Source: an uncultured Balneolaceae bacterium
GTDB taxonomy: Bacteria; Bacteroidota; Rhodothermia; Balneolales; Balneolaceae
Direction of reading: 5' to 3'
Assembly (NCBI GenBank): GCA_964423345.1
Contig: CAYREV010000007.1
Location: 23,912 to 87,911, forward strand
Length of the DNA: 64,000 bases
Part shown: piece by piece, positions 1 through 13,859 of the stretch
Numbering within the stretch: position 1 is the first letter of the stretch
Layout: the number at the start of each line of letters is the position of its first letter
The notes under the pieces: model-generated
What the model saw: the letters and a program-made list of their open reading frames with translations, nothing else
What the model was told of the DNA's origin: nothing
Database searches by the model: none
Translations under genes and position numbers: made by a program

Positions 1-1940
1 GGCTCATACCGGCGGTTAAGTATCTCTTTCCCGTCTACCACGATGCGAAGGCGTACGGCCGACCGCTCCCGGGAAATCCTGTTATCCGGCCGCCGCATAT
101 GGGGCAAGAGGTTCTCCTGGGAAGGTGCATCCTCAACGTTATTATCCACCGGCCGCCCGGGAAGCGTAAAGGATACCACCAGGCTCGAATCACTTTGAAC
201 CGGCAAGCTGTAGGGAGCCTTGCTAAAGAAGTAGGTCAGAAAACCCAGAACGGCTATCAGCGATAATCCCATTATATACCGGGCCGCTTTGCTTCCCCGA
301 GCCTTCGGCAGCTCCTGTTGCCCCCCATGCTCCCTGAAAGCACGGGCCTCCCGTATAAATGCCGCGGAATCCACCTGGTTAAAACGCAGATAACGAATGC
401 GGGAGGGGTCTGCCTTTTCACTTCTCAGCTCCGGATGCCTCGCCCCTTCCAGGCGCATGCCGGTCCACTTCGTCCCCAGCCTGAAGTCAGGTTCGCTCTG
501 GCAGCCGACAACCAGTACCCTCTCTGCTCCCTTTCTCAATACCCGCTCTATCATAAGCGGATGCACCCATCCCACACAGGGAACGGAGCGGACGATATAT
601 CCCGGCAGCTCTTTGCAACGGCCGGTTTCCTCATCAATTTGGAGCTCTGCCCCGGCCGAAGCCGAACAAATGTAGGCAACATATGCCGAGCCTTCCTCAT
701 CAAGCCTGTTTTCCAGCCATCCGTCCACTTCCCTTCGCACCTCGTTGGGCTGTAGCTGCGGAAAGGATATGCCCGCGGGGTCACAGGCCCCAACGCATAT
801 GCCGCAGGACATACACTTCGAGGGATCGATGGAGGCATAATAGTCACCTCTTTTGATATCTCCCTCTTCCCTGCGCAACATGGTCACAGCATTAAAGGGA
901 CAATCTTTATAACACTGTTCACACCCATTGCACAGTGAGGGGTCGACTTCAGGTTTCGGTGGCTCTTTTTTTACCAATAGCCAGGGTACGCTGATAAACC
1001 CAATAAAACCGACCAACAGTAACAGCCAGAGCATTCCGCCCTCCAGCCGGTCGGTGAAGTAAACGGGAATCATATAAAAATAATCGATGGGCATCGCCTC
1101 CTGCATTTCCAGCATGCGGGCGGGCTTGGTCAGGTCGGCAGGCAGCCAAACCGACATAATACAGAGTGAACCGGTCACGGCCCAGGTCATCGGTTTATTG
1201 GTAATAAAGTTAGCCTTGTTAAGCCGCGACACATGCAGCCACAAGGCAATTCCTATAGCCAGCGGTATCAGCATATGGAAGAAGAAAACCAGGAAAAACA
1301 GCAGGGAGTTGAAACTGTCGTCGGTCAGGAAGGAGCGGCTGAGCGGCTCGGCAAAAATCGGCAACTGGTCCAGCATCCGGGCAGTCCCCACCGCTACCTG
1401 GTTGGCCCTTTCATCCCAGACCAGCCAGTATCCCAGCCAGCCGTCAAACCAGAGTAATGCCACCGCCAGGATGCCGGTAACCCAGGCGAGCCACCTGCCT
1501 CCACCCAGGCGCTTGGCAAAAAACATTTTGAAGGCATGAAAAAGTATAAACAACATGCATGCATCCGAGCTGTAGCGGTGGAGGGCCCTGAAAAACTCCC
1601 CTGCCGGATTCATATGCAGCAGGGAATCGTAGGCCTGGTACACACTCGGCTTATACCATAACAGCAGGACAAATCCGGAGACCAGGGCAATCACAAAAGT
1701 AAGGTTGGCGATAGCACCCGACTGGGTAAAGGGGTTGAATGCGGGAGACAACACCTTTTCCACCCACTTGTCAAGCCGTTGAAACCACCGGTTACCGATA
1801 TTAAAAAACCATTCAGCCCGAACGGTCGACTCAGGGCACTGCTCTTTTACCCGGCTTTTATAGTCGCCGTTTTTTTTGAATGAGCTGTGGTCGCCTCCGG
1901 CCAGCTCCGCCAGATTAATTTCTTCAGTCAGGGTATTCAT
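1..1940 (-). CDS. Multidomain redox membrane protein, partial (C-terminus lies beyond the window edge): cytochrome b-type di-haem domain + 2x[4Fe-4S] ferredoxin domain + MvhD/FlpD-like domain + extra TM segment
   Basis: The minus-strand frame is open from the ATG at 1940 to position 1. It is absent from the ORF track because it has no in-window stop, so this is my own translation. 'FFRALHRYSSDACMLFILFHAFKMF..RWLAWVTGI' and 'FFFHMLIPLAIGIALWLH' give two His-x13-His pairs, as in cytochrome b helices B and D. 'CNGCEQCYKDCP' and 'CMSCGICVGAC' (about nt 960-800) are two CxxCxxCxxxC cluster motifs. 'YICSASAG...VPCVGWVHPLMIERVLRKGAERVLVVGCQ' resembles the MvhD/FlpD fold but with several Cys missing. 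The start overlaps the stop of the upstream SCO1-like gene (1924-1940). Confidence 0.7.
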   Translation of the reverse strand, partial: MNTLTEEINLAELAGGDHSSFKKNGDYKSRVKEQCPESTVRAEWFFNIGNRWFQRLDKWVEKVLSPAFNPFTQSGAIANLTFVIALVSGFVLLLWYKPSVYQAYDSLLHMNPAGEFFRALHRYSSDACMLFILFHAFKMFFAKRLGGGRWLAWVTGILAVALLWFDGWLGYWLVWDERANQVAVGTARMLDQLPIFAEPLSRSFLTDDSFNSLLFFLVFFFHMLIPLAIGIALWLHVSRLNKANFITNKPMTWAVTGSLCIMSVWLPADLTKPARMLEMQEAMPIDYFYMIPVYFTDRLEGGMLWLLLLVGFIGFISVPWLLVKKEPPKPEVDPSLCNGCEQCYKDCPFNAVTMLRREEGDIKRGDYYASIDPSKCMSCGICVGACDPAGISFPQLQPNEVRREVDGWLENRLDEEGSAYVAYICSASAGAELQIDEETGRCKELPGYIVRSVPCVGWVHPLMIERVLRKGAERVLVVGCQSEPDFRLGTKWTGMRLEGARHPELRSEKADPSRIRYLRFNQVDSAAFIREARAFREHGGQQELPKARGSKAARYIMGLSLIAVLGFLTYFFSKAPYSLPVQSDSSLVVSFTLPGRPVDNNVEDAPSQENLLPHMRRPDNRISRERSAVRLRIVVDGKEILNRRYE

Positions 1941-2937
1941 CTTTCAGATTGAGGTTTACAGAGTGGTTCAATGTCTTTTCCAACGGTGGGGCATCCTCTT
2001 GAACAAGCAGGCGTGTTGCTTTCAGCAGCCATTTCTGCTGTCGGTCTCCCAGCGTAAACCGGTAGGCTATGGTGCCATTTTTGTCAATGAGTATAAAGAG
2101 GTTCGCGTGGTCAATTGCCCCGTCTTCCCTTCTTATCCGGGGAATGTTAAGCTTGTCAAGGATCTCATTGATATATCCCGCTTCTCCCGTCAACAGATGC
2201 TGATTCGGTTCCGTCAACTCATAATGGTCGGCCGTCATTTTAAGCATGTCGGGAGTGTCTTTCGACGGATCCATGGTCAATGCCATCAGCTGTACCTGCC
2301 CGGCCTCCTTCTCGTTCAGTTCAGCAAGCACCTGTTTGGCCTGTTCCAGAATCAGGGGGCATGTTTCGGCACACGAGGCGTAAACCGCGGTAAGCATTAT
2401 CACATTCTCTCCCCTGTAATCGTCCAGCGAAATGTATTCCTTGTGCTGATTGACCAGCGTAAATGAGGGCGGACTAAATTCTGTCCTCAGGCTCTCGGCC
2501 GGAAACGGTAGTTCCCCTTCACTTTTCAACGAATAAAATGAGGGAAGGGTCAACCCCACGCCCAAAACTAAAACCAATGCCAGGCAGACAGCCGGCAAGG
2601 CAGGCGTCCACCCCTCTTTCAGTAAATCCGAGAGAGGGCGATACCAAAAAATTATTACAAACGTACTGAGGATGGCGGGCTGAACGATAAACATAGCCAG
2701 GTAGATAGACTCGATCTCACCCGTGGCCGGATCATAGCCCAGGCACCAGGTTTTAAACTCCTCGGCAAAAGCACCCAGGGTGGAACCGGAAACCGGGATC
2801 ATCGAAACCGCCAGAACCAGAACGGCAAAAAAGAACAGTACCGAAAGCATGAAAACGGGAAAGCGCCACGAGGAAAAGAAAGCTTCCAGGGAATATAGGA
2901 GATGCTTTGCCTGTTCTGTAGATGGGTCTTTCTTCAT
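1924..2937 (-). CDS. SCO1/SenC-family copper chaperone (thioredoxin fold) fused to an N-terminal polytopic membrane domain
   Basis: 337-aa ORF. The C-terminal half carries 'VIMLTAVYASCAETCPLILEQ' (the CxxxC motif of SCO1/SenC) and 'LMALTMDPSKDTP'. The N-terminal ~150 aa contain 3-4 hydrophobic helices. It lies directly downstream of HCO subunit I. Confidence 0.8.
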   Translation of the reverse strand: MKKDPSTEQAKHLLYSLEAFFSSWRFPVFMLSVLFFFAVLVLAVSMIPVSGSTLGAFAEEFKTWCLGYDPATGEIESIYLAMFIVQPAILSTFVIIFWYRPLSDLLKEGWTPALPAVCLALVLVLGVGLTLPSFYSLKSEGELPFPAESLRTEFSPPSFTLVNQHKEYISLDDYRGENVIMLTAVYASCAETCPLILEQAKQVLAELNEKEAGQVQLMALTMDPSKDTPDMLKMTADHYELTEPNQHLLTGEAGYINEILDKLNIPRIRREDGAIDHANLFILIDKNGTIAYRFTLGDRQQKWLLKATRLLVQEDAPPLEKTLNHSVNLNLKDEYPD

Positions 2938-3088: not shown

Positions 3089-4816
3089 TCAACGAACGAA
3101 CCAAAGGTCAGCCAGGGCTTTCCAGTTGGCGAAATAGTAGATGGCGAAAGTCAACAGGAATATAATTACGACCGTCATGGTTCCGGGCGTTTTTACATGT
3201 TCGTAATCTTCGCCTTCCTCCTCATAGCCCTTCTCAATCAGCTCATCCTTCAGGCGGGTGGAATTTTCGTCCTGCCAGCTTTTCATCGGCTGTCCCTCAT
3301 TGGAACGTCCGAAGAACACCGCTGCAACCACCAGCCCGACAAAGAGCAGCAGGCCGAGGAATGCCAGTATCCCTCCAATTCCGACCAGCCCGAGCATGAC
3401 ATGGGCAATGGGATCAAAACCGGAATCAAGGATGGAGCCGCTGAAGTCGATATCATAGTGACGGCGCGGAACTCCATAGGAACCGGCGAACGACATACCC
3501 ATCGACATGATCACGATACCTCCTCCGAAAAGGTAGGGCTGTATGCGCGCCCACTTCTTAAGATAGAACTCGCGCTGGAATATGAGCGGCACCAGGTAGT
3601 AGGCCAGCCCCATGAAAGCGAGAGTGGTCCCTCCAACTACCGTTGCATGGAAGTGTCCGGGGATCCTGAGCGTGTTATGAGCAATAATATTGATCTGTTC
3701 GGTACCCAGCGTAACCCCGGTAATGCCTCCGATAAATCCGAAGATGACAATGGATAGCAGAATGGCCGAAAAGCCCGGGTCTTTCCATGGAAGTTTTGCG
3801 AACCATCCGAAAATACCCTTGGTAAAACCTTTACGGCGCTGTGCCACCTCAAGAGATGCGGGAACCGTATAGCCGTGAATCATGGAGGCCAATACCGCAA
3901 GATACATGGCATAGGAGGTGTTCCAGATTTTCCATCCGGCACCTACACCCGGATCCACCAGCAGGTGGTGGGCCGAAGCCAGGTTTATAAAAAGAATATA
4001 GAGCACGAAAGCCCCGCGGCAAACCGTTTGATTCAGGGGTTTGGCCCCCGTTGTCATCGTAGCCATGAAATACCAGACGGCAACCATGGCACAAACATTA
4101 ATCTGCTGTGACATATGTCCGAGTCCCCACCAGAGCAGGCGGTAAAGTCCGGGATCGTACGACTCGATCCACCCCATGGACCAGAAATAGGCGGGTACCA
4201 GGGCAGCCGCACCGTGAAGAAGCGCCAAAACCGCTATGATAGCCGCGGCGGCCGCACCGAAAGTTACCAGGGGCATCGAGCCCTCGTAGGTTTTATCCCG
4301 CTTGGCTATATAGAGGGTGGCAAAAAAGTTAAAACAGACAATCAATGCCCCGACGGCAAAGAGGATGATCCCCAGGTAAAAAAGCGGATGCGCTTTCAGC
4401 GGTACGTAGGACGTCATCAGCACATCGGCCTGTCCGGCAAGGATGATATAATTGGTCAATACCGCCCCAATAGTCATCAGCCCCAGTGAAAGGTGTGCCA
4501 GCTTTTTAGAAAACAGGCGACTGTTCAACAGGCTTGTGCTTGCGAAATAGAGGATGCCCATCTCCATGAAGATGATCCAGAAGACCAGCATATTGATCCC
4601 GTGGAAGGTCAACATACGGTAGTACCAGACGCTGTCGAGCAGGTGGACGGCCGTCCAGCGGGTCAGGGCCAAACCGATAGCGGCTATGGCGCCGAGCAGG
4701 AGAAAGACAACGGCTAATACGGCATTCGCCCGCACGAAATACTGTGCGTTTAGAAATACCCGAAGACCGGTAGTAGTACAGGTTCTGAACTTGGCTAAGG
4801 CTTGTGTAGCTTTCAT
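3089..4816 (-). CDS. Haem-copper oxidase superfamily subunit I, B-family (ba3)-like but lacking the cross-linked tyrosine; putative NO reductase of the eNOR/sNOR type
   Basis: 575-aa polytopic protein. Ligand set: His72 'LTFHGINM', His234 'WWGLGHMSQQ', His283/284 'SAHHLL', His388/390 'PGHFHA'. Gln238 sits at His+4, where ba3 has Tyr237. The gene lies next to a CuA subunit II and a SenC gene, in a nirK/azurin/Rrf2 context. Confidence 0.85.
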   Translation of the reverse strand: MKATQALAKFRTCTTTGLRVFLNAQYFVRANAVLAVVFLLLGAIAAIGLALTRWTAVHLLDSVWYYRMLTFHGINMLVFWIIFMEMGILYFASTSLLNSRLFSKKLAHLSLGLMTIGAVLTNYIILAGQADVLMTSYVPLKAHPLFYLGIILFAVGALIVCFNFFATLYIAKRDKTYEGSMPLVTFGAAAAAIIAVLALLHGAAALVPAYFWSMGWIESYDPGLYRLLWWGLGHMSQQINVCAMVAVWYFMATMTTGAKPLNQTVCRGAFVLYILFINLASAHHLLVDPGVGAGWKIWNTSYAMYLAVLASMIHGYTVPASLEVAQRRKGFTKGIFGWFAKLPWKDPGFSAILLSIVIFGFIGGITGVTLGTEQINIIAHNTLRIPGHFHATVVGGTTLAFMGLAYYLVPLIFQREFYLKKWARIQPYLFGGGIVIMSMGMSFAGSYGVPRRHYDIDFSGSILDSGFDPIAHVMLGLVGIGGILAFLGLLLFVGLVVAAVFFGRSNEGQPMKSWQDENSTRLKDELIEKGYEEEGEDYEHVKTPGTMTVVIIFLLTFAIYYFANWKALADLWFVR

Positions 4817-4836: not shown

Positions 4837-5361
4837 TTATTCGACAATGATTTTACCGGTCATCATATGGTGCCCGATGCCGCAAAATTCGTTACATATG
4901 ATATCAAAAGTCCCCGTAGTGGTGGGAGTCATGGTCAGCACATGATCGTAACCCGGAAGGATGTGGAAATTCATGTTCATCGGCAGCAGGGAGAAACCAT
5001 GCTGCAAATCGGGTGAAGAGATATGTATGCGATAGGTCTGATCTTTTTTAAGTTTCAGAACAGGATACCAGTTCCACATCTTTCCAACCAGGTAGGCATC
5101 TCCGCCCGGGGCGGGTTCAACGATAGGTATTCCATTCATCTCCCCCACCTTGTTTGTTTCAATGAATCGGTCGGTTCGATCCAGGAAAGCGGCGGCTTCC
5201 ACTCTATAGGATTCTCCCGTACTGTTTTGCTTCCCTTTGAAGTGCCAGTACGGCATGGTTACAGACATGACCAGACACCAGACTAAAGCCAGCCCGACCC
5301 AAAGGCGCTCGGTGCCGGTTGGGGCTTTAAACCAGTTTCCAACAGGATGAAAAATACTCAT
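4837..5361 (-). CDS. HCO subunit II, cupredoxin domain with intact CuA site, single N-terminal TM helix
   Basis: 174 aa. 'DLQHGFSL' plus 'FDIICNEFCGIGHHMMTGKIIVE' gives the H...CxxxCxxxHxxM CuA ligand pattern. It is very similar to ba3 subunit II 'CNQYCGLGHQNM'. It sits 20 nt upstream of subunit I. Confidence 0.85.
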   Translation of the reverse strand: MSIFHPVGNWFKAPTGTERLWVGLALVWCLVMSVTMPYWHFKGKQNSTGESYRVEAAAFLDRTDRFIETNKVGEMNGIPIVEPAPGGDAYLVGKMWNWYPVLKLKKDQTYRIHISSPDLQHGFSLLPMNMNFHILPGYDHVLTMTPTTTGTFDIICNEFCGIGHHMMTGKIIVE

Positions 5362-5390: not shown

Positions 5391-5540
5391 TCAGGGTAGC
5401 GTGGCATCACCCATTGATATTAATTCGATGACACCCCAGAGGGTGTAGGAGATGATGGGAATCAGCAAGCCCAGGGCTAGCAACAGCCAGATGTTGTCCA
5501 GGAACCGCTGTCCTAATGGTTTTTCTTCTTCTGATTTCAT
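5391..5540 (-). CDS. Small (49 aa) single-TM peptide, positional analogue of ba3 subunit IIa
   Basis: My own translation, since it is below the ORF-track size cut-off: 'MKSEEEKPLGQRFLDNIWLLLALGLLIPIISYTLWGVIELISMGDATLP'. It has one hydrophobic helix and fills the gap between the HCO paralogue and subunit II. The order small-II-I matches cbaD-cbaB-cbaA of Thermus. Confidence 0.4.
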   Translation of the reverse strand: MKSEEEKPLGQRFLDNIWLLLALGLLIPIISYTLWGVIELISMGDATLP

Positions 5541-5554
5541 AACGATTATTGTTT

Positions 5555-6988
5555 TTATGTTTGAGGGTACATTCGCTTATTCTTCCAGGCCTTGACCATG
5601 ATCCAGAGAAACAGCAGGCCCCCGGAAACGGCCAGCAGTCCGCCGATAGTCATAATCCCCAGGCCCGCAAATACTTCTATAGAATCGATCTGCTGTTCGG
5701 AACCGAACGATTTTCTGGCCAGTCCGTGGTATCCCGCATAACCGAAACCGGCGGCAAACAGCGCCTGCCCGAATCCAAACAGCAGGGGTTGTATAGCGGC
5801 AAGCTTCCTGCTCCGCCCCCCGGGCAGCCGTATGTCGTGTATCTCCAGCAACAGGTAGGTTACGGCCATAAATGCTACGGTTATCCCTCCCACGGCTGCA
5901 TGGTAGTGGGCCGGAATAAGGGTGTTGGAACCGTTGATCATCGCCCCGAGAATAAAACCGATGGAGGTAAGCAGCATACTGGTGACCAATCCGCCGAAAT
6001 AGGGATTTTTCAACAATCTGCCGGGCAGCTCGCCCTTGCGGCGGGCCCGTACCAAAACGACGATGATCAGAACCATAAAAACCGTGACTACGGGGAATAT
6101 GCCCCATTGCATATACCGGGTAAAACCGGAATGGTATAGCATGTTGGAAGTCCCTTTCATCGTGAGCAGCGGGGCTGCCAACACCGGGAGCGTAAAAAGG
6201 GCAAACAGGATGGCCGACCATCGATAGGGTATGGGATTTCTTTTAAGCAATTTGCCCAACAGGATAATCCACACCGACAGCATGGCTGCCACATTCACAA
6301 ACTGAAGCAGGTGCCCCCCTCCCCAGATGGTCAGCTCGTAGTAGGTTTGATCTGACAGGGTTTGGGGTGTGGCAAGCCAGGAACCGAAGAAGGTTACAAA
6401 GCTGACAATCAGCAGAATGGCCGCCGATCGAAAACCGGGCAAAGAGGAATCAGGAAACGCCCTTTCCATAGGGCGGCCGCTCGGAATGGCTGAAATACGG
6501 GAGTTCAAAACCGTACACAATACCCCGGCACCGAATATTAAGAGACCCCCGATAAAAAGAGGATGGTCGAGGACCGGTATATAATTGGACAAGACCGGTT
6601 CCACCCCGGATACAAATATGGAACTGACCACCATGCCCACTCCCGTGACCGCCAAAGCGTATCCCAGCGGGAGCAGCCTGTTGCTTTTCCCGGCGGCGGG
6701 TACCAATACAAAGAGTCCGCACAGAAATGCATATATCCAGATCAGCAGGGCCAGGTCTACATGGACCACGAGTCCCCTCTTGGCAAAAAGAGGGTCAGAA
6801 ATCAGCTCACTGATGAAAGGTGCCCTTGCCAGGACAATGATTATCGAAAACAGGCCCGACAGAAGCAGGGTCCCTATACTCAGGAAAATCCAAAGCCGGG
6901 AGAGGGTCTTTGACTCAATCCCGGCATGATCAACCCAGGACGCTACCGGGAACATTAATATTTTTTTTACCGCTGCTAACAATAGCAA
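5555..6988 (-). CDS. Divergent HCO subunit-I paralogue that retains the haem ligands but lacks the CuB His-His pair
   Basis: 477 aa. It is clearly paralogous to the 575-aa subunit I: 'NYIPVLDHPLFIGGLLIFGAGVLC' vs 'SYVPLKAHPLFYLGIILFAVGALI'; 'WGGGHLLQFVNV' vs 'WWGLGHMSQQINV'; 'IPAHYHAAVGG' vs 'IPGHFHATVVGG'. The helix VII segment 'LFALFTLPVLAAPLLTM' aligns with 'LYILFINLASAHHLLVD', so HH is replaced by AP. The track start is TTG at 6988; an in-frame ATG lies at 6955. Confidence 0.75.
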   Translation of the reverse strand: MLLLAAVKKILMFPVASWVDHAGIESKTLSRLWIFLSIGTLLLSGLFSIIIVLARAPFISELISDPLFAKRGLVVHVDLALLIWIYAFLCGLFVLVPAAGKSNRLLPLGYALAVTGVGMVVSSIFVSGVEPVLSNYIPVLDHPLFIGGLLIFGAGVLCTVLNSRISAIPSGRPMERAFPDSSLPGFRSAAILLIVSFVTFFGSWLATPQTLSDQTYYELTIWGGGHLLQFVNVAAMLSVWIILLGKLLKRNPIPYRWSAILFALFTLPVLAAPLLTMKGTSNMLYHSGFTRYMQWGIFPVVTVFMVLIIVVLVRARRKGELPGRLLKNPYFGGLVTSMLLTSIGFILGAMINGSNTLIPAHYHAAVGGITVAFMAVTYLLLEIHDIRLPGGRSRKLAAIQPLLFGFGQALFAAGFGYAGYHGLARKSFGSEQQIDSIEVFAGLGIMTIGGLLAVSGGLLFLWIMVKAWKNKRMYPQT

Positions 6989-7319: not shown

Positions 7320-7760
7320 ATGCATTTACCCCAGACTGCAGAATACGCCCTCAGGGCGATGGCATGTATCGCCCTGAAAAAAGATGAACGCCCGGTAACA
7401 TCGAAGGTACTGGCAGAGGCTACAAACATTCCCAGTCATTACCTGTCCAAAATCATGCGGAAAATGGTTGAAGCAGATCTTGTTACATCAAAAAAAGGAC
7501 ATGGCGGCGGTTTCCAACTGGCCCAATCGCCCGGGGATATCACCTTCAGGATGATCCTGGAGACGGTAGATTATGAAATAGAACCGGAAAGCTGTGTATT
7601 CGGATGGGAAAAGTGCAACAACGATGATCCCTGCCCCCTGCACAATACCTGGAGCCAGCTCAAGGATTCCTTTCACTGGTGGGCCGAAAACGTGACCCTT
7701 CAGGACGTTATAGACCACCCCGGGGAAACCGAACTTATCTTAACTCCCGGCAACGACTGA
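7320..7760 (+). CDS. Rrf2-family transcriptional regulator with three-Cys Fe-S motif (NsrR-like)
   Basis: 'MHLPQTAEYALRAMACIAL', 'IPSHYLSKIMRKMVEADLVTSKKGHGGGFQLA' (winged helix), and 'CVFGWEKCNNDDPCPLH' (three clustered Cys). It is divergent from the HCO operon and close to nirK. Confidence 0.85.
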   Translation: MHLPQTAEYALRAMACIALKKDERPVTSKVLAEATNIPSHYLSKIMRKMVEADLVTSKKGHGGGFQLAQSPGDITFRMILETVDYEIEPESCVFGWEKCNNDDPCPLHNTWSQLKDSFHWWAENVTLQDVIDHPGETELILTPGND

Positions 7761-7789: not shown

Positions 7790-8287
7790 ATGAACCTGTA
7801 CTACCTTTCCGTCTTTATCCACATAGTATCGGCAATCTTCTGGATTGGGGGCATGCTGTTTACCGCAGCCGTACTGGTGCCCGCCTCCCGTGATAAGCTC
7901 CTGAGAAATAAAAAGGGAGCCTTTTTTACGCTTGTGGGGGTCAAATTCAGCAGGCTGTCATGGATCTTGTTTGCTGTTTTATTCATTACGGGAATAACCA
8001 ACCTGCTGGCCCGCGGCTTTCACCTGCAGGACTTTGTGTCGGCACCATTCTGGCAGAGCGGGCTCGGAGATGCCCTGGCTGTCAAACTGCATCTGTTTGC
8101 GGTTGTACTGGTAATAAGTGGCATTCATGATTTCTATGCCGGACCAAAGGCGGCCGAACTCATTGACCGGTCCCCCGGCAAACCGGAGACTCGCCGATTC
8201 CGTAAGCTGTCCAGCTGGCTGGGCCGCATCAACCTGTTACTGGGACTGGCAATCCTGTATTACGCCATGAAAATGGTCCGCGGTTAG
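7790..8287 (+). CDS. CopD-family-like four-TM membrane protein
   Basis: 165 aa with four hydrophobic helices. The N-terminal 'FIHIVSAIFWIGGMLF' motif resembles the CopD/HemJ-type 'H..aa..W.GG' helix. It lies 29 nt downstream of the Rrf2 gene and is probably co-transcribed. Confidence 0.45.
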   Translation: MNLYYLSVFIHIVSAIFWIGGMLFTAAVLVPASRDKLLRNKKGAFFTLVGVKFSRLSWILFAVLFITGITNLLARGFHLQDFVSAPFWQSGLGDALAVKLHLFAVVLVISGIHDFYAGPKAAELIDRSPGKPETRRFRKLSSWLGRINLLLGLAILYYAMKMVRG

Positions 8288-8304: not shown

Positions 8305-9567
8305 TTACTTCACAAACTGCGGATGGATGGAGAGCATCACCCAAGCCCAGGACTGAAGTCCGTCGGCATCCACACCGCGAAGCGTTTCCATTGATCCGGA
8401 AGGCGAAAGCAGGGAATATCCCACCTTCAGGGAAATATCCGAACTGAAGCTATGCGCCAGGCTGAAATCAATTTCGGAACCCAATCCTTTTTCCAGGATT
8501 TCGCCGGGCACCGTCGGGTTCACCGCCGCTTCCGCCAGTGCAAAATAGTGGTAGGTCAGTGATATGTTGGACGCTGATCCCCTTTTGTACACGGCCTGCA
8601 CATACAGGTCCTGAAGTCCCCCGAAACGGCTGTCGGCCGGCACGTTCAGGAAATAATCCATATGCCCGTAGAACTTGTGGTTGGTGGCATACAAGGTGTT
8701 AAAGGCGTGGCGGCGTGGATTGGGGTCGTCGGCCCCTCCTCCCGAGAGGTAATCGTAGCCGGCAGACAGGTGGAATGCATCCAGCTCATATCCGGCTTTT
8801 ACCGCATACATATAGGCCCTTATATTTTCCCTTGTGGCATCATCCCCGCTTTGAAGGTAAACGGTCCCTGTTGTATGAATTCCGTTAAGCCGGTACTGGA
8901 GATGGGTCCCGTAGGTATAGCGAAACTTGACCGATCCCGACGGCCGTTCAAAACCATCGGTTATTCCGATAAAGGATGCCTGGAAGTTTTCCCACTTTTT
9001 TTGCAGCCATATATATGTCAGGACCTTGTAGTTTTTAAGCGTATACGTATTACCCAGCAGGTTTTGTGCCTCCTGGTTATAGGCTCCTCCCAGGTCCAGG
9101 CTAAGCCTGCCATCCCCCTTGCGAAGCTTCAACACCAGGGCATCATGGCTGCGTCCCTGCTGGGTCCAGTTGACACTTCCCAAGAGGCGCTGGTCGTCAT
9201 AGATCAATTCCTGGCGGCCCATTTTGATTGCTGATGCATCGGCTACCTTTACCTCTGCCCATGCTTCGTGAACATTCACATTGGGTGTGTCCCCAAGCTG
9301 TTCTACTTCCCCCCAGACCCTTACATCCTGGCCGGACAGTTTTATTTTGTACAGTTCCGTTTGATACCGGAGGCTCAGGCGCGCCCGTTGGGATATAAAA
9401 AATGCCGGCTCCACATCGGCGGTTTTCATAATCCTGTACCCGTTACGATATTCAGATCGGGGCCTGAACTCCCCCTCCACACTCAATTGAGCCTTTGTGG
9501 TGGCAGGTAAAACCATCAGTAAACAGCAAAGAACAAATAAACGGCTAACGGCTTTGTAAAAATTCAT
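8305..9567 (-). CDS. Outer-membrane beta-barrel porin (alginate-export-family-like)
   Basis: 420 aa with signal peptide 'LLMVLPATTKAQ'. The N-terminal 'EGEFRPRSEYRNGYR' motif and alternating beta-strand pattern resemble Alginate_exp-type porins, which are often found next to N-oxide genes. Confidence 0.5.
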   Translation of the reverse strand: MNFYKAVSRLFVLCCLLMVLPATTKAQLSVEGEFRPRSEYRNGYRIMKTADVEPAFFISQRARLSLRYQTELYKIKLSGQDVRVWGEVEQLGDTPNVNVHEAWAEVKVADASAIKMGRQELIYDDQRLLGSVNWTQQGRSHDALVLKLRKGDGRLSLDLGGAYNQEAQNLLGNTYTLKNYKVLTYIWLQKKWENFQASFIGITDGFERPSGSVKFRYTYGTHLQYRLNGIHTTGTVYLQSGDDATRENIRAYMYAVKAGYELDAFHLSAGYDYLSGGGADDPNPRRHAFNTLYATNHKFYGHMDYFLNVPADSRFGGLQDLYVQAVYKRGSASNISLTYHYFALAEAAVNPTVPGEILEKGLGSEIDFSLAHSFSSDISLKVGYSLLSPSGSMETLRGVDADGLQSWAWVMLSIHPQFVK

Positions 9568-9671: not shown

Positions 9672-10151
9672 CTAAGTTGCCTCCCTTTTTACAGTCAGGA
9701 TACCTTTCATACCGCCCGAATAGTGGCCCGGGAAGGTACAGATGTATTCGTACTCGCCCGGTTTGTCGGGAGCCGTAAAGGTAACCTCTACGGTTTCCCC
9801 TCCTCCGGCCAGGCCGGTATAGGCCAGGATCTGGTCCTCCATATCCGGTGCGATATATTCGTTGTCGGATGCTCGTGCCGAGGCGATAGCCACAGCAGTT
9901 GCATCCGCATCGGATTCCAGAAGAACGAAGTTGTGGGCCATAGCCACTTTCGGAAAGTCGCTGACCGTAGTCAGTTTAACGATGACCTTCTGGCCCGGCA
10001 GGACTTCGATATTAGTGACCGTAAACTTCAACTGGTTGGTTCCCTCCATTTCGATGACTTTGACGGCCGGGTTATCGGCCAGCCCGACCTGGGCTATTAA
10101 CAGCATCGGTAACAGGAGTAACAGTGATTTTATTTTTTTGATCGTTTCCAT
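9672..10151 (-). CDS. Azurin-like blue copper protein (cupredoxin), secreted
   Basis: Signal peptide, 'AMAHNFVLL' (His ligand), and 'YICTFPGHYSGGMKGILTV' (Cys-x2-Pro-Gly-His-x4-Met, as in azurin 'CTFPGHSALMKG'). Confidence 0.85.
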   Translation of the reverse strand: METIKKIKSLLLLLPMLLIAQVGLADNPAVKVIEMEGTNQLKFTVTNIEVLPGQKVIVKLTTVSDFPKVAMAHNFVLLESDADATAVAIASARASDNEYIAPDMEDQILAYTGLAGGGETVEVTFTAPDKPGEYEYICTFPGHYSGGMKGILTVKREAT

Positions 10152-10200: not shown

Positions 10201-11331
10201 TTACTTGATGTCGGCATCAAAGATGTCCGGGCGTTTCTTGCCTTCCACATTGATGATACCGAGCATGCCTTTATGGGCAACCCTGCTGAGGGCGTGGTCG
10301 ACCAGCTTGACCGGTCCGGGTACGGGGAAATCCATTTCAAAGATGCCGCAGCTTCCCGGTGCCACATGGCAGGTTTGCACATATCGTTCCGGCTTGCTGG
10401 CAATGGCCCCTTCTCTCCAGGCTTTGGTGAATACATTGCCGATGGGGTGGAAATTGCTGGTCACATTCGGCCCGCCGGTAACCAGGTAGATACGCGCGGT
10501 CTCGCCGGTTTTGACATTGAGCGCTCCATACCGGTTGTCGGTGATGGCCTGGGATTCGCCGTTCAGCAGTACATAATTTGGATTTTCATCGATCATGGCC
10601 TGCGTATTGAAAAGGTGCATACCCTTCTCTCCCGCTTCCCTGTTGGTATATACCTCGTGCTGTCCGAAGTAGAACTCGTGATCTACCGGGGGAAGACCCT
10701 CTTCGGGCTCTACCAGTATCATGCCGAACATTCCGCTGCTGATGTGGTAGTCCATGCGTGGGACCGCACAGTGATAGATGAAGGCTCCGGGGTACATCGC
10801 CTTGAATTTCAGCTTGGTGGATTGGCCGGGAGGGCACAGGGTGGCTTCGGCTCCTCCGCCGGGGCCATAAACCGCGTGGAAGTCCACGTTGTGAATCATG
10901 GTATTTTCAGAGAGGTTCTTATGGGTCAATATTACCGTATCGCCCTGGCGTACACGCACCATGGGGCCGGGTACCTGCCCGTTGTATGTGAGATACTTGA
11001 ACTTGACGCCGTCTTCGATTTCGGCGATGACCTCCCGGCTTTCGAGCGTGATCTCATGGATTTTGGGCTTTCGGCGCTTGATCGGCCCGGGGATGTCGGT
11101 AGGATCGGCGGCAACCCGCTGAACCGTGGGAATATTTAGCATGGAAGCCGGGGTGAAATCGCCCGCCTTGCCAACTTCTTTGGCCTGCCCCACCTTGGGG
11201 AACCCCATGCCGGCCAGGAACCCGCCTGAGAGCAGGGCCGCGCCCGTGTTTCTCAGAAACCTTTTTCGAGACTGGGTAGGCTTGTCGTTAACGGCAGTGA
11301 TTTGATCGGAAGTATAATTTTTGCTTTCCAT
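10201..11331 (-). CDS. nirK: Copper-containing nitrite reductase NirK with Tat signal
   Basis: 'RKRFLRNTGAALLSGGFLAGMG' twin-arginine leader; 'HNVDFHAVYGPGGGA' and 'YHCAVPRMDYHISSGMFG' type-1/type-2 Cu ligand motifs; 376 aa two-cupredoxin size. Confidence 0.92.
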   Translation of the reverse strand: MESKNYTSDQITAVNDKPTQSRKRFLRNTGAALLSGGFLAGMGFPKVGQAKEVGKAGDFTPASMLNIPTVQRVAADPTDIPGPIKRRKPKIHEITLESREVIAEIEDGVKFKYLTYNGQVPGPMVRVRQGDTVILTHKNLSENTMIHNVDFHAVYGPGGGAEATLCPPGQSTKLKFKAMYPGAFIYHCAVPRMDYHISSGMFGMILVEPEEGLPPVDHEFYFGQHEVYTNREAGEKGMHLFNTQAMIDENPNYVLLNGESQAITDNRYGALNVKTGETARIYLVTGGPNVTSNFHPIGNVFTKAWREGAIASKPERYVQTCHVAPGSCGIFEMDFPVPGPVKLVDHALSRVAHKGMLGIINVEGKKRPDIFDADIK

Positions 11332-11768: not shown

Positions 11769-13859
11769 ATGGACATGAATGGCCCAAATTCCGCTCCCGA
11801 AAAACGATGGTCCCGTCCCCTTGTGATCCTCGTATCGGCGTTTCTGCTGTTTGAAACCATTACCGGCCTGCTGATATACTTTCTTCCGTTCAGTATCAGC
11901 AACCAGATGATGATCCTTGTCCACACCGGCATTGGGATCGCATTCTGTATCCCCTACCTGGTGTACCAGGTACAACACTGGCTCAGTCAGCGCCAACGAC
12001 CGCTCAGTGAAATCAAGCTTACAGGGTACATCTCCATGTTCGCTGCCCTGGCAGCCGTCATATCGGGACTGGTCCTTACATGGCAGGCCCTGTTTGAAGT
12101 CCGTATCAGCTATACATGGGACAAGATCCACCTGTTCTCTACTTATGTGCTGCTGGCCTCACTGCTACCACATATTGTGCTCATTGTCATACGCGACTAC
12201 AAGGCACGCAACAATCCGGTGATGAAACCGGTGATCGAATCCGAAAAGAATTTCGGCATAAGCAACCTCTTTGCCGTGCTTGCACAATTTGCGCTGGTAT
12301 TACTGCTTATATATGCTTTTGAGCCGACTCCCGTCGATAATAGCCTTCCCGAAGATTACCACTATACGGACGAAAGCGGCGACCGGCCCTTTGCGCCCAG
12401 CCTGGCAACCACCGAAAACGGCGAGGGCATCGATGACCTGCTGCTGGGAAAATCGGAAACATGCAGCAGTTCGGGATGCCACGAACAGATCGGAAAAGAG
12501 TGGGAGGCCAGCGCTCACCGCTACTCGGCTATGGACCCGGCTTTCCGGGCCGTCCAGACCGCCATGGGTAATCAGGAGGGACCCATGTCTACCCGTTATT
12601 GCGGTGGTTGCCACGATCCCATCTCCCTGTTTTCCGGAACCAAGAACCTGTTCAGCGACAGCCTGACCAATAAGATGGGCATGGACGAAGGGGTCTCCTG
12701 TGTCTCCTGCCATGCCATCAAGCAGGTGGATGTATCAGGAAATGCCGATTATGTGATTGCACCGCCCGAACGCTATATCTTTGAACTGAAAGACGGTAAG
12801 ATGGCCAAACTGATCAGTGATTTTCTGATTAGGGCCTACCCCCAGAAACATATCGACACCTTCCAGCGGCCACTGCTGAAAACTCCGGAATTCTGCGGAT
12901 CCTGTCATAAACAGTTTATAGACGAAGAGATCAATAACGTCGGATGGGTACAACTGCAGAACCAATACGACAATTGGCGTAAGAGCCGGTGGAATCATCC
13001 CAAAGAACCCACAAAAACCATTCAGTGCCGGGAATGCCATATGCCCCTCACAGATTCCTTTGATCCTGCCAGCGGGGACGATTTGGATTACAACCGTACC
13101 AAGGACGACGGGAAGCACCGGGACCATCGATTCCTCGGAGCCAACCAGCTGATACCCACCCTGCTGGACCTGCCGGGAGCCGAAGAGCACGTCAAACTCA
13201 CCGAAAAATGGCTAAGGGGTGAAATAGAGATTCCGGAAATCGCCGACAAATGGCGAACCGGGCCCGCAGTGCCCATCAACATTGTTGCTCCGAGAGAGAT
13301 AACCGCAGGCAATGACCTTGAGATAAGCATTGTCATAAGCAACAACAAAACAGGACACCACTTCCCCACCGGACCGCTCGATATCATTCAATCCTGGCTG
13401 GAGATTGTGGTGACAGATCAGGATGGAAACGAGATATTCACTTCCGGAACCCTGGACGAAAATAATTTTATCGAACCCGGCTCCTTTATTTTTAAAGCCG
13501 AACCGGTAGACCAGTACAATAATGTTATCGACCGGCACAACCTATGGGAAATGGTGGGCGTACGATACAGCCGGGCCCTCTATCCCGGCCATTCCGATAA
13601 CGCCGACTTCCGGATACCCCTGCCCGATTCACTGGGCCGGAAAAGCAGTGTTTCCATGAACATACCGGGCGACAAGCTCAACACCGATAAACACCAAACC
13701 ATTTTGAATATCAGTGCCCGTCTTCAGTACCGGAAAATAAATCAATACCTGATGAATGCGGTTTTCGGCAATACCTACGACAACCCCACCGCCACTGTTA
13801 CTACGATTTCAAGCGACCGGGCCGATGTAACCGTACTGAAAACAGACGCAACCTATTAG
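11769..13859 (+). CDS. Membrane-anchored multihaem cytochrome c (N-terminal ~5-TM domain + periplasmic domain with five haem-binding motifs)
   Basis: 696 aa. The N-terminal ~190 aa hold five hydrophobic helices with several His. Haem motifs are 'CSSSGCH' (CX4CH), 'CGGCH', 'CVSCH', 'CGSCH' and 'CRECH'. Confidence 0.8.
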   Translation: MDMNGPNSAPEKRWSRPLVILVSAFLLFETITGLLIYFLPFSISNQMMILVHTGIGIAFCIPYLVYQVQHWLSQRQRPLSEIKLTGYISMFAALAAVISGLVLTWQALFEVRISYTWDKIHLFSTYVLLASLLPHIVLIVIRDYKARNNPVMKPVIESEKNFGISNLFAVLAQFALVLLLIYAFEPTPVDNSLPEDYHYTDESGDRPFAPSLATTENGEGIDDLLLGKSETCSSSGCHEQIGKEWEASAHRYSAMDPAFRAVQTAMGNQEGPMSTRYCGGCHDPISLFSGTKNLFSDSLTNKMGMDEGVSCVSCHAIKQVDVSGNADYVIAPPERYIFELKDGKMAKLISDFLIRAYPQKHIDTFQRPLLKTPEFCGSCHKQFIDEEINNVGWVQLQNQYDNWRKSRWNHPKEPTKTIQCRECHMPLTDSFDPASGDDLDYNRTKDDGKHRDHRFLGANQLIPTLLDLPGAEEHVKLTEKWLRGEIEIPEIADKWRTGPAVPINIVAPREITAGNDLEISIVISNNKTGHHFPTGPLDIIQSWLEIVVTDQDGNEIFTSGTLDENNFIEPGSFIFKAEPVDQYNNVIDRHNLWEMVGVRYSRALYPGHSDNADFRIPLPDSLGRKSSVSMNIPGDKLNTDKHQTILNISARLQYRKINQYLMNAVFGNTYDNPTATVTTISSDRADVTVLKTDATY

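Follow-up and report, generated by a model that had tools for sequence, protein, structure and literature searches.

A cytochrome b, di-cluster ferredoxin and MvhD-like fusion protein encoded with eNOR-type nitric oxide reductase genes: a candidate electron-supply subunit

Architecture of the fusion protein

We analyzed a stretch of 64,000 nucleotides from an uncultured Balneolaceae bacterium (assembly GCA_964423345.1, contig CAYREV010000007.1, positions 23,912 to 87,911; hereafter the window), at the start of which a single open reading frame joins a cytochrome b, a ferredoxin domain with two [4Fe-4S] motifs, an MvhD-like domain, a further transmembrane (TM) helix and a beta-sandwich. This gene, referred to here as the fusion, is the last conserved gene of a haem-copper oxidoreductase cluster, as had been proposed in a preliminary description made from the same DNA. 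The frame lies on the reverse strand (1..1940, ATG at 1940-1938) and, as also proposed there, runs off the window. Translation of positions 3-1940 gives 646 stop-free codons, which are 100% identical to residues 1-646 of a 715-amino-acid (aa) protein, P0001, from an NCBI contig; 69 residues therefore fall outside the window, and there is no frameshift. When Pfam matches were judged against the curated cut-offs, the Cytochrome_B, di-cluster ferredoxin and FlpD families all scored above them, in agreement with the domains previously read from the sequence alone, and no NCBIfam family spans the whole protein. For conservation we used an alignment of 36 homologues (A1, 42-68% identity), to which the statements on invariance below refer. 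The AlphaFold model built with this alignment (predicted local distance difference test score, pLDDT, 84.2; predicted template modelling score, pTM, 0.81) contains helices A-D, helix E at residues 249-265, a short ef helix at 287-298 and helix F at 301-322, beyond which come an alpha/beta iron-sulfur (Fe-S) region, one long helix (551-574) and a domain that is all beta.

The membrane part (helices A-F, residues 62-322, window 975..1757; all fusion coordinates are on the reverse strand) finds its best match, in both sequence and fold, in the cytochrome b of bc1 and b6f complexes. Pfam Cytochrome_B (PF00033) covers residues 62-242 with 59.6 bits against a cut-off of 27.2, the A1 profile retrieves cytochrome b6 from the PDB at E=1e-28 together with bc1 cytochrome b, and Foldseek aligns the model to the cytochrome b of complex III over 280-315 columns spanning helices A to F (E ~2e-6). 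Two His pairs, H121-x13-H135 on helix B (codons 1578-1580 and 1536-1538) and H222-x13-H236 on helix D (1275-1277 and 1233-1235), would bind the haems; all four residues are without variation in the 36 homologues and are retained in the sister clade described below. The earlier assignment of a bc1/b6-type domain with two such pairs is thus borne out, and the two further helices that it had announced correspond to E and F of the model.

Two loop motifs point to a quinone site. The first, GYWLVWD (residues 170-176, 1413..1433), is invariant and retained in the sister clade; in the profile alignment GYWLVWDE pairs with GYSLPWDQ of b6, making it the cd-loop counterpart of the GYSLPWDQ and GYVLPWGQ sequences of b6 and bc1. 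In these complexes the cd loop contributes to the Qo pocket. The second, PIDYFYMIP (residues 284-292, 1065..1091), lies between helices E and F, and from that position and general knowledge of bc complexes we take it to be the equivalent of the ef-loop PEWY/PDWY motif; D286, which stands where PEWY has Glu, and P292 are invariant, and Y289 is nearly so. Across both clades the motifs read GYWLVWD and xD[WY][FW]Y..P, and from them a Qo-type quinone pocket is predicted on the periplasmic side. The fusion thus shares with bc1/b6f cytochrome b (6rqf chain I, 8ugd) the four-helix haem bundle, the H-x13-H pairs on helices B and D, GY.L.WD, the acidic-aromatic ef-loop motif and helices E and F. In other respects, however, it departs from them. 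The membrane domain stops after helix F and runs straight into the first Fe-S motif, with helices G and H or a subunit IV absent; the Cys that binds haem ci is missing, Cys35 of b6 aligning with Gln73 of the fusion; an Fe-S domain is fused at the N-side face; and the neighbors are always haem-copper genes, not pet or qcr genes. Fusion loci also encode neither a Rieske protein nor cytochrome c1 or f: the Rieske motif CxHxGC...CxxH was found neither in the window nor in 102 loci, and no Rieske Pfam family occurs in the annotated contexts.

The Fe-S part begins with a di-cluster ferredoxin domain (residues 330-392, 765..953), to which the Pfam models PF12838 and PF00037 match above threshold. Its CxxCxxCxxxC motifs, at residues 337-347 (900-932) and 376-386 (783-815), contribute eight Cys, all invariant. 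The MvhD/FlpD-like domain follows (residues 417-537, 330..692), with Pfam FlpD (PF02662) covering residues 421-537 at 32.4 bits against a cut-off of 22.3. The PDB profile search with A1 also matches the C-terminal ferredoxin domain of HdrA and MvhD chains, and a sub-profile of the MvhD region matches six solved MvhD/ElpC-type chains (7bkb_F best at E=6.5e-10, 5odc_D at 2.8e-8). Relative to the canonical pattern C-N-W-C ... V-M-C ... G-C-H-x-G-D-C-H-Y, the window protein keeps three of the five Cys, namely the first, third and fourth (C425 and C455, both invariant, and C480, at least 90% conserved). The second is Ser428, a Ser in every family member; the window's clade lacks the fifth, which Myxococcota-type members and the sister clade possess, giving these four of the five. 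A partly degenerate Cys pattern, as first described, is exactly what is found.

The order of two [4Fe-4S] motifs followed by the MvhD fold is that of the HdrA2 C-terminus and of MvhD/ElpC systems (7bkb_F, 5odc_D, 9sw2_D); residues 324-537 align to residues 566-766 of the 777 in HdrA2 (NF040770), in other words to its ferredoxin domain and fused MvhD. In solved complexes MvhD is an electron connector that leads from a dehydrogenase module to the Hdr/Fe-S chain (PMC12350162). Unlike these systems, the fusion has fewer Cys and is anchored in the membrane on both sides of the module, and none of the contexts examined contains HdrABC, a hydrogenase or a formate dehydrogenase. The Fe-S/MvhD part is probably cytoplasmic and the C-terminal domain periplasmic, because of the cytochrome b homology and the Lys/Arg-rich flanks of the helices; the cytochrome b of bc complexes begins, and its helix F ends, on the N side. 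Of the cytoplasmic di-cluster ferredoxin proposed earlier, the two motifs and their eight invariant Cys are seen directly, and its side of the membrane is drawn from homology. In NarI/NarH, HdrE/HdrD and QmoC-type proteins, two b haems join a quinone site on the periplasmic side to cytoplasmic Fe-S clusters. The fusion resembles such redox loops in outline, but its membrane part is Cytochrome_B by Pfam and not of the NarI type, and its gene cluster encodes no catalytic cytoplasmic subunit.

The preliminary description also named an additional TM helix and a further domain. These are a seventh helix at residues 551-574 (219..290), recognized by hydropathy and as an AlphaFold helix, and an all-beta domain from residue 576 to 715, of which the first half (576-646, 3..215) lies within the window. 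Modelled alone, this domain forms a generic beta-sandwich (pLDDT 89.9), for which Foldseek returned generic matches only (TM-score ~0.4); searches of Pfam, PDB sequences and folds gave no match or specific fold relative. A PCuAC (PF04314) or cupredoxin copper site was considered and dropped, as neither sequence nor fold searches supported it. His614-Met615 of this domain is invariant in both clades. Myxococcota-type and sister-clade members carry in addition a conserved Cys pair around it (C...HM...C), which the window's clade does not have; this region could bind a metal or form a disulfide. The His-Met region is deleted in a variant with an appended cytochrome c, described below.

The gene cluster and its conservation

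Directly upstream of the fusion lies a gene for an SCO1/SenC copper chaperone (1924..2937, reverse strand), and the fusion ATG sits 17 nt inside its end, so that stop and start overlap. In the window, SenC is extended at its N-terminus by about 150 residues, and three TM helices are predicted there in place of a single anchor; the extension is kept in the clade-1 loci introduced below. Upstream of senC, on the same strand, follow the genes for the reductase itself. Subunit I (575 aa, 3089..4816) retains all six metal-binding His; compared with the ba3 enzyme of T. thermophilus, the cross-linked Tyr237 is replaced by Gln, GHPIVY becoming GHMSQQ (GHMSQQI in the window). This Tyr-to-Gln substitution is the signature by which eNOR is recognized (PMC8756737, Table A4). 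Subunit II (4837..5361) is a cupredoxin with the CuA motif CNEFCGIGHHMM. By the subunit I signature and the CuA subunit II, the cluster in the window classifies as eNOR type. The last ~70 residues of subunit I (3089-3300, an acidic linker and one TM helix) occur as a separate reading frame of 57-79 aa at two other loci (L010 and L011), and thus a small subunit is either fused in the window or split there.

Between subunit II and the next large gene lies a conserved protein of 49 aa with a single TM helix (5391..5540, reverse strand). A counterpart of 48-52 aa occupies the same position at almost every locus of the two clades, and the protein may be a third, small subunit. The large gene (5555..6988, reverse strand) encodes a divergent subunit I paralogue of 477 aa, with a COX1 score of 55 bits and 28% identity to the real subunit I. 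The paralogue retains the haem His and one CuB/FeB His; present are the His of helix II, a single His in helix VI (GGGHLLQF) and the HxH of helix X, whereas the HH pair has been lost. We found no match for it in the PDB sequence search. A preprint on Ferrigenium straubiae calls this protein an "eNOR scaffold protein of unknown function" (bioRxiv 10.64898/2026.01.22.701106), and we refer to it as the scaffold paralogue.

To ask whether the fusion belongs to this cluster elsewhere, as the preliminary description had recommended, we compared ten contexts of the window's own clade (clade 1): the window, Fodinibius halophilus (L001), a Balneolaceae metagenome-assembled genome (MAG), Persicimonas, Calditrichota, two Myxococcota-type genomes, Gracilimonas, a Rhodothermales MAG and one further genome. 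They share the order scaffold paralogue, small protein, subunit II, subunit I, SenC and fusion, mostly with a divergently transcribed Rrf2 gene. The fusion was linked to reductase genes in all ten, and in three of three contexts of the sister clade (clade 2). A metagenome scan with A1 added 80 further loci, for which counts are limited to those with enough upstream DNA. Here SenC was directly upstream of the fusion in 56 of 56 loci, subunits I and II were each present in 35 of 36, and the scaffold paralogue was found in 26 of 28; GHxxQQ was read in 39 of the 40 subunit I helix VI motifs found, and NirK lay within 10 kb in seven loci. Seen through these homologous loci, the only conserved feature downstream is a gene for haem O synthase, which follows the fusion directly in 15 of 54. 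A NuoF-like gene was found in none of the 80 metagenome loci and nowhere in the 64-kb window, and COX15-CtaA is not listed in any Pfam-annotated context. A NOR-like haem-copper gene was linked to the fusion in every locus examined, and the chance that the arrangement was peculiar to this genome did not survive the comparison.

Beyond the scaffold paralogue, the window contains a divergently transcribed regulator of the Rrf2 family (7320..7760, forward strand), directly followed by a CopD-like membrane protein of 165 aa (7790-8287, forward strand), which adjoins Rrf2 at locus L002 too. On the reverse strand then lie a porin (8305-9567), a cupredoxin of the azurin/plastocyanin type (9672-10151) and NirK, the copper nitrite reductase (10201-11331), whose TIGR02376 score is 388 bits (cut-off 296). 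Together with the Tyr-to-Gln replacement in subunit I, this score upholds the denitrification setting assumed at the outset. The same description had called an MvhD-like domain unusual in such a setting, and here it was mistaken: in eNOR-type clusters the domain is the rule, in hundreds of 50%-identity clusters. Diverging from the nirK side of the gene cluster, positions 11769-13859 (forward strand) encode a protein of 696 aa with weak matches to multihaem cytochromes c (c554, MtrC/MtrF-like and ExtKL-like) and to the membrane domain DUF4405. The cytochrome b domain of the fusion has its best sub-threshold score on the ExtP model, from the same selenite/tellurite operon family as ExtKL.

Family size, variants and known relatives

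An exhaustive search of 50%-identity representatives gave 2829 matches at E<=1e-3, of which 366 at E<=1e-30, and the full-length architecture was found down to 28% identity. The fusion is a real and widely conserved membrane protein; it is one member of a large unnamed family that present annotation mislabels, and is not peculiar to the window locus. At only ~28% identity to the window's clade stands the sister clade, with names from Nitrospinota, Nitrospirota and "Deltaproteobacteria". Its gene order is small protein, subunit II, subunit I, small protein, haem O synthase, SenC, fusion 1, NuoF-like gene, fusion 2 and scaffold paralogue, in which fusion 2 is sometimes shorter (cytochrome b and ferredoxin). 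The NuoF-like flavoprotein (Complex1_51K and NADH_4Fe-4S) thus lies between two fusion paralogues at the three loci L017 (12090-14593), L021 (6583-12049) and L022 (6556-12112). The scaffold paralogue of L021 and L022 is followed by genes for a NorQ/CbbQ-like ATPase and a second Sco, and these two loci have NirK or NirS upstream. Subunit I is again GH-SS-QQ, and the MvhD-like domains retain GCxxxDCHYREGN. The arrangement of two paralogues and a NuoF-like protein points to a cytochrome b core that is a heterodimer and is joined by a flavoprotein binding NADH.

Another variant, at L018 (5083-7374) and L019 (2361-4652), carries a cytochrome c (CKVCH) appended after the beta-sandwich. It follows a subunit I with canonical GHPLVY, the mark of an oxygen reductase, and two Sco genes and a PCuAC gene lie nearby. 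Considering that this subunit I keeps the cross-link Tyr, the family is not restricted to NO reductases. A further candidate, in which SenC and cytochrome b appear as one reading frame (P0156), is incomplete and lies on a 6-kb contig; it is probably a frameshift and was not used as evidence for fusion.

Related genes had already been noticed in Ferrigenium straubiae, within its eNOR operon, and the fusion is a variant of the same theme of cytochrome b and Fe-S domains. There, subunits II and I, haem o synthase, sco1 and the "scaffold protein" are called "very common", and two cytochrome b/[Fe-S] genes resembling chain C of bc1 are termed "rather unusual"; the authors suggest a quinol:NAD+ oxidoreductase supercomplex, and the proteome contained these proteins (bioRxiv 10.64898/2026.01.22.701106). 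Our loci share with that operon the eNOR subunits II and I, sco1, the scaffold gene and a cytochrome b with Fe-S domains, and in many cases haem o synthase, and L017, L021 and L022 match its layout as the preprint describes it. They differ in that the Ferrigenium operon has two such genes and an NADH-binding part, whereas the window has one fusion gene and no NuoF-like partner, and the MvhD-like domain, seventh helix and periplasmic domain are not described in the preprint. An appendix table elsewhere lists, uncommented, one accession with cytochrome b6, a part like the beta subunit of dimethyl sulfoxide reductase, FlpD and C1 cytochrome c (PMC8756737). Murali et al. 2024, who defined eNOR, make no mention of the fusion protein.

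Two other clusters combine subunits II and I with senC and one more membrane protein, namely norSY-senC-orf1 of the sNOR of ammonia oxidizers and cbaCBA-senC-cbaD of Bacillus. In both, however, the Tyr position is Asn, where the window has Gln, and the fourth gene of Bacillus encodes a protein of 190 aa with six TM helices, unlike the fusion with its 715 aa. That the fusion is the sNOR "orf1" was considered and is not supported, given this Gln in place of Asn and with no ammonia oxidizer (no Nitrosomonas or Nitrosospira) named among the 240 homologues listed.

Proposed role and alternative readings

The reading that we favor, tentatively and at somewhat short of even odds, is that the fusion serves as a dedicated transmembrane electron-supply subunit of eNOR-type NO reductase. 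The MvhD-like domain would be the docking site of a cytoplasmic reductant, namely the adjacent NuoF-like, NADH-oxidizing flavoprotein in the sister clade and perhaps ferredoxin or an unlinked dehydrogenase in the window's lineage. From the two [4Fe-4S] clusters, electrons would reach the inner haem (H135/H236) and then the outer haem (H121/H222); they would exit on the periplasmic side via the quinone pocket, with the CuA subunit as acceptor, and the reductase would so obtain a private electron supply controlled by the Rrf2 regulator. The analysis itself establishes the domains, the conserved ligands, the fold, a homology-based topology and the gene linkage; we infer that the cofactors are bound and that the protein joins the reductase, and likewise its donor and the direction in which electrons move. 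The variants mark both ends of such a path. The NuoF-like gene of the sister clade indicates that the cytoplasmic end is a docking site for a dehydrogenase, as MvhD is elsewhere, and the cytochrome c appended at L018 and L019 indicates that the periplasmic end faces a CuA-type acceptor; it is because of these two marks that we favor a dedicated supply to the reductase. The preliminary description had likewise proposed a dedicated quinol-linked or cytoplasmic-donor-linked route to the NOR-like enzyme, an interpretation that is partly supported: it is reasonable but unproven.

Several observations weigh against this proposal. The periplasmic beta-sandwich shows no recognizable cofactor ligands and neither a cupredoxin nor a PCuAC fold, and in the window's clade the step from outer haem to CuA would therefore proceed without an obvious carrier. 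The invariant Qo-type residues suggest that real quinol/quinone chemistry takes place and that the protein is not a simple wire; for an MvhD cluster the window protein offers just three Cys; and the NuoF-like partner is missing from the window and from the 80 clade-1 loci. The neighbors include biogenesis genes, with SenC upstream and, in the 15 of 54 loci counted above, haem O synthase downstream. Finally, the authors who purified the eNOR of R. marinus discuss the enzyme with no mention of a protein of this kind. With its three MvhD Cys, the lack of a NuoF-like gene and no recognizable periplasmic cofactor, the window variant explains itself less readily than any other member of the family and is a problem for every reading.

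The Qo-type residues lead to a first alternative, quinol bifurcation without a Rieske protein, which we regard as unlikely. Menaquinol would be oxidized at the Qo-type pocket, its first electron going to CuA or the appended cytochrome c, and the low-potential electron would travel inwards via the b haems and the Fe-S/MvhD part to reduce NAD+ (through the NuoF-like protein) or ferredoxin, with NO reduction paying for it. This would account for the invariance of GYWLVWD and xD[WY][FW]Y..P in both clades and for an Fe-S chain placed where a Qi site would otherwise accept the electron, and the cytochrome c variant would offer a high-potential periplasmic acceptor. The NuoF-like gene, moreover, occurs only in the Nitrospinota/Nitrospirota/"Deltaproteobacteria" clade, and nitrite and iron oxidizers require reverse electron flow, which counts in favor of bifurcation. 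The same proposal has been made for Ferrigenium straubiae, with the proteins seen in the proteome (bioRxiv 10.64898/2026.01.22.701106). Against it, driving an electron against the membrane potential to about -320 mV (an estimate from textbook potentials) would be costly, and the MvhD of known complexes feeds electrons in from a dehydrogenase. The window's Balneolaceae-like lineage, whose nearest named relative is Fodinibius halophilus, is heterotrophic as far as is known, with no obvious need for reverse flow and no NuoF-like partner near its genes. That the fusion and the eNOR-type reductase together form a Rieske-less "bc-like" supercomplex, in which CuA or cytochrome c replaces Rieske and c1 and the low-potential electron reduces ferredoxin or NAD+, seems to us rather improbable.

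The biogenesis neighbors lead to a second alternative, which we likewise hold to be unlikely: the fusion would be an assembly factor that delivers cytoplasmic reducing equivalents to the periplasm, for the SenC and CuA cysteines, for Cu(I), or for the haem O/haem A chemistry of a haem-As-containing enzyme. The reading frames of SenC and the fusion overlap or nearly abut and are always adjacent, a haem O synthase gene lies downstream in part of the clade-1 loci (15/54) and upstream in clade 2, clade-2 clusters carry a NorQ-like ATPase and a second Sco, and the invariant His614-Met615 could be a metal site. A place between SenC and, often, haem O synthase suits such a role just as well as it suits electron supply. 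CtaA is not found in the Pfam-annotated contexts, although many eNOR operons are reported to carry it (PMC11214002). Conversely, the periplasmic domain has no PCuAC, cupredoxin or thioredoxin fold, and such strict conservation of a Qo-type pocket would not be expected of a thiol or copper reductase. At L018 and L019, furthermore, the gene directly follows subunit I, with Sco and PCuAC beyond a gene on the opposite strand, and its appended cytochrome c resembles a catalytic donor to CuA.

We give still less weight to the idea that the fusion is an independent respiratory enzyme (a ferredoxin- or NADH:menaquinone oxidoreductase), or a redox or NO sensor, that is merely co-transcribed with the reductase. 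It has all the parts to join a cytoplasmic donor to a quinone site, and its contact with subunits I and II is itself an inferred one, but a general quinone reductase would be expected in other contexts too, of which there was none in 94 loci, and the linkage is near-absolute in at least five phyla as named by the sources (Balneolaceae, Rhodothermales, Calditrichota, Myxococcota, Nitrospinota/Nitrospirota). The last alternative, that sequencing errors joined separate cytochrome b, ferredoxin and MvhD genes, as the preliminary description had itself allowed for, can practically be dismissed: the ~700-aa architecture runs uninterrupted, in one frame, through hundreds of independent assemblies and down to 28% identity, and we found no support for such an artefact in the fusion family, the SenC-cytochrome b frame of P0156 being the only probable case.

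The NO reduction of R. marinus eNOR has been assayed with N,N,N',N'-tetramethyl-p-phenylenediamine (TMPD)/ascorbate only, and although eNOR is reported to be among the commonest NO reductases in nature, neither its physiological electron donor nor whether its NO reduction conserves energy is known (PMC11214002). Encoded almost always together with eNOR, and combining a quinone-type cytochrome b with a cytoplasmic Fe-S connector, the fusion protein is an obvious candidate for this missing link. Recognizing the family also corrects its current label, "hydrogenase iron-sulfur subunit", by which the reconstruction of metabolism from metagenomes would be led astray. Should NADH or ferredoxin indeed supply the electrons, the fusion would represent a new branch of electron transport in denitrification or NO detoxification; should its Rieske-less Qo site bifurcate, it would represent a new bioenergetic mechanism, in which the reduction of NO (or O2) is coupled to the formation of a low-potential reductant.

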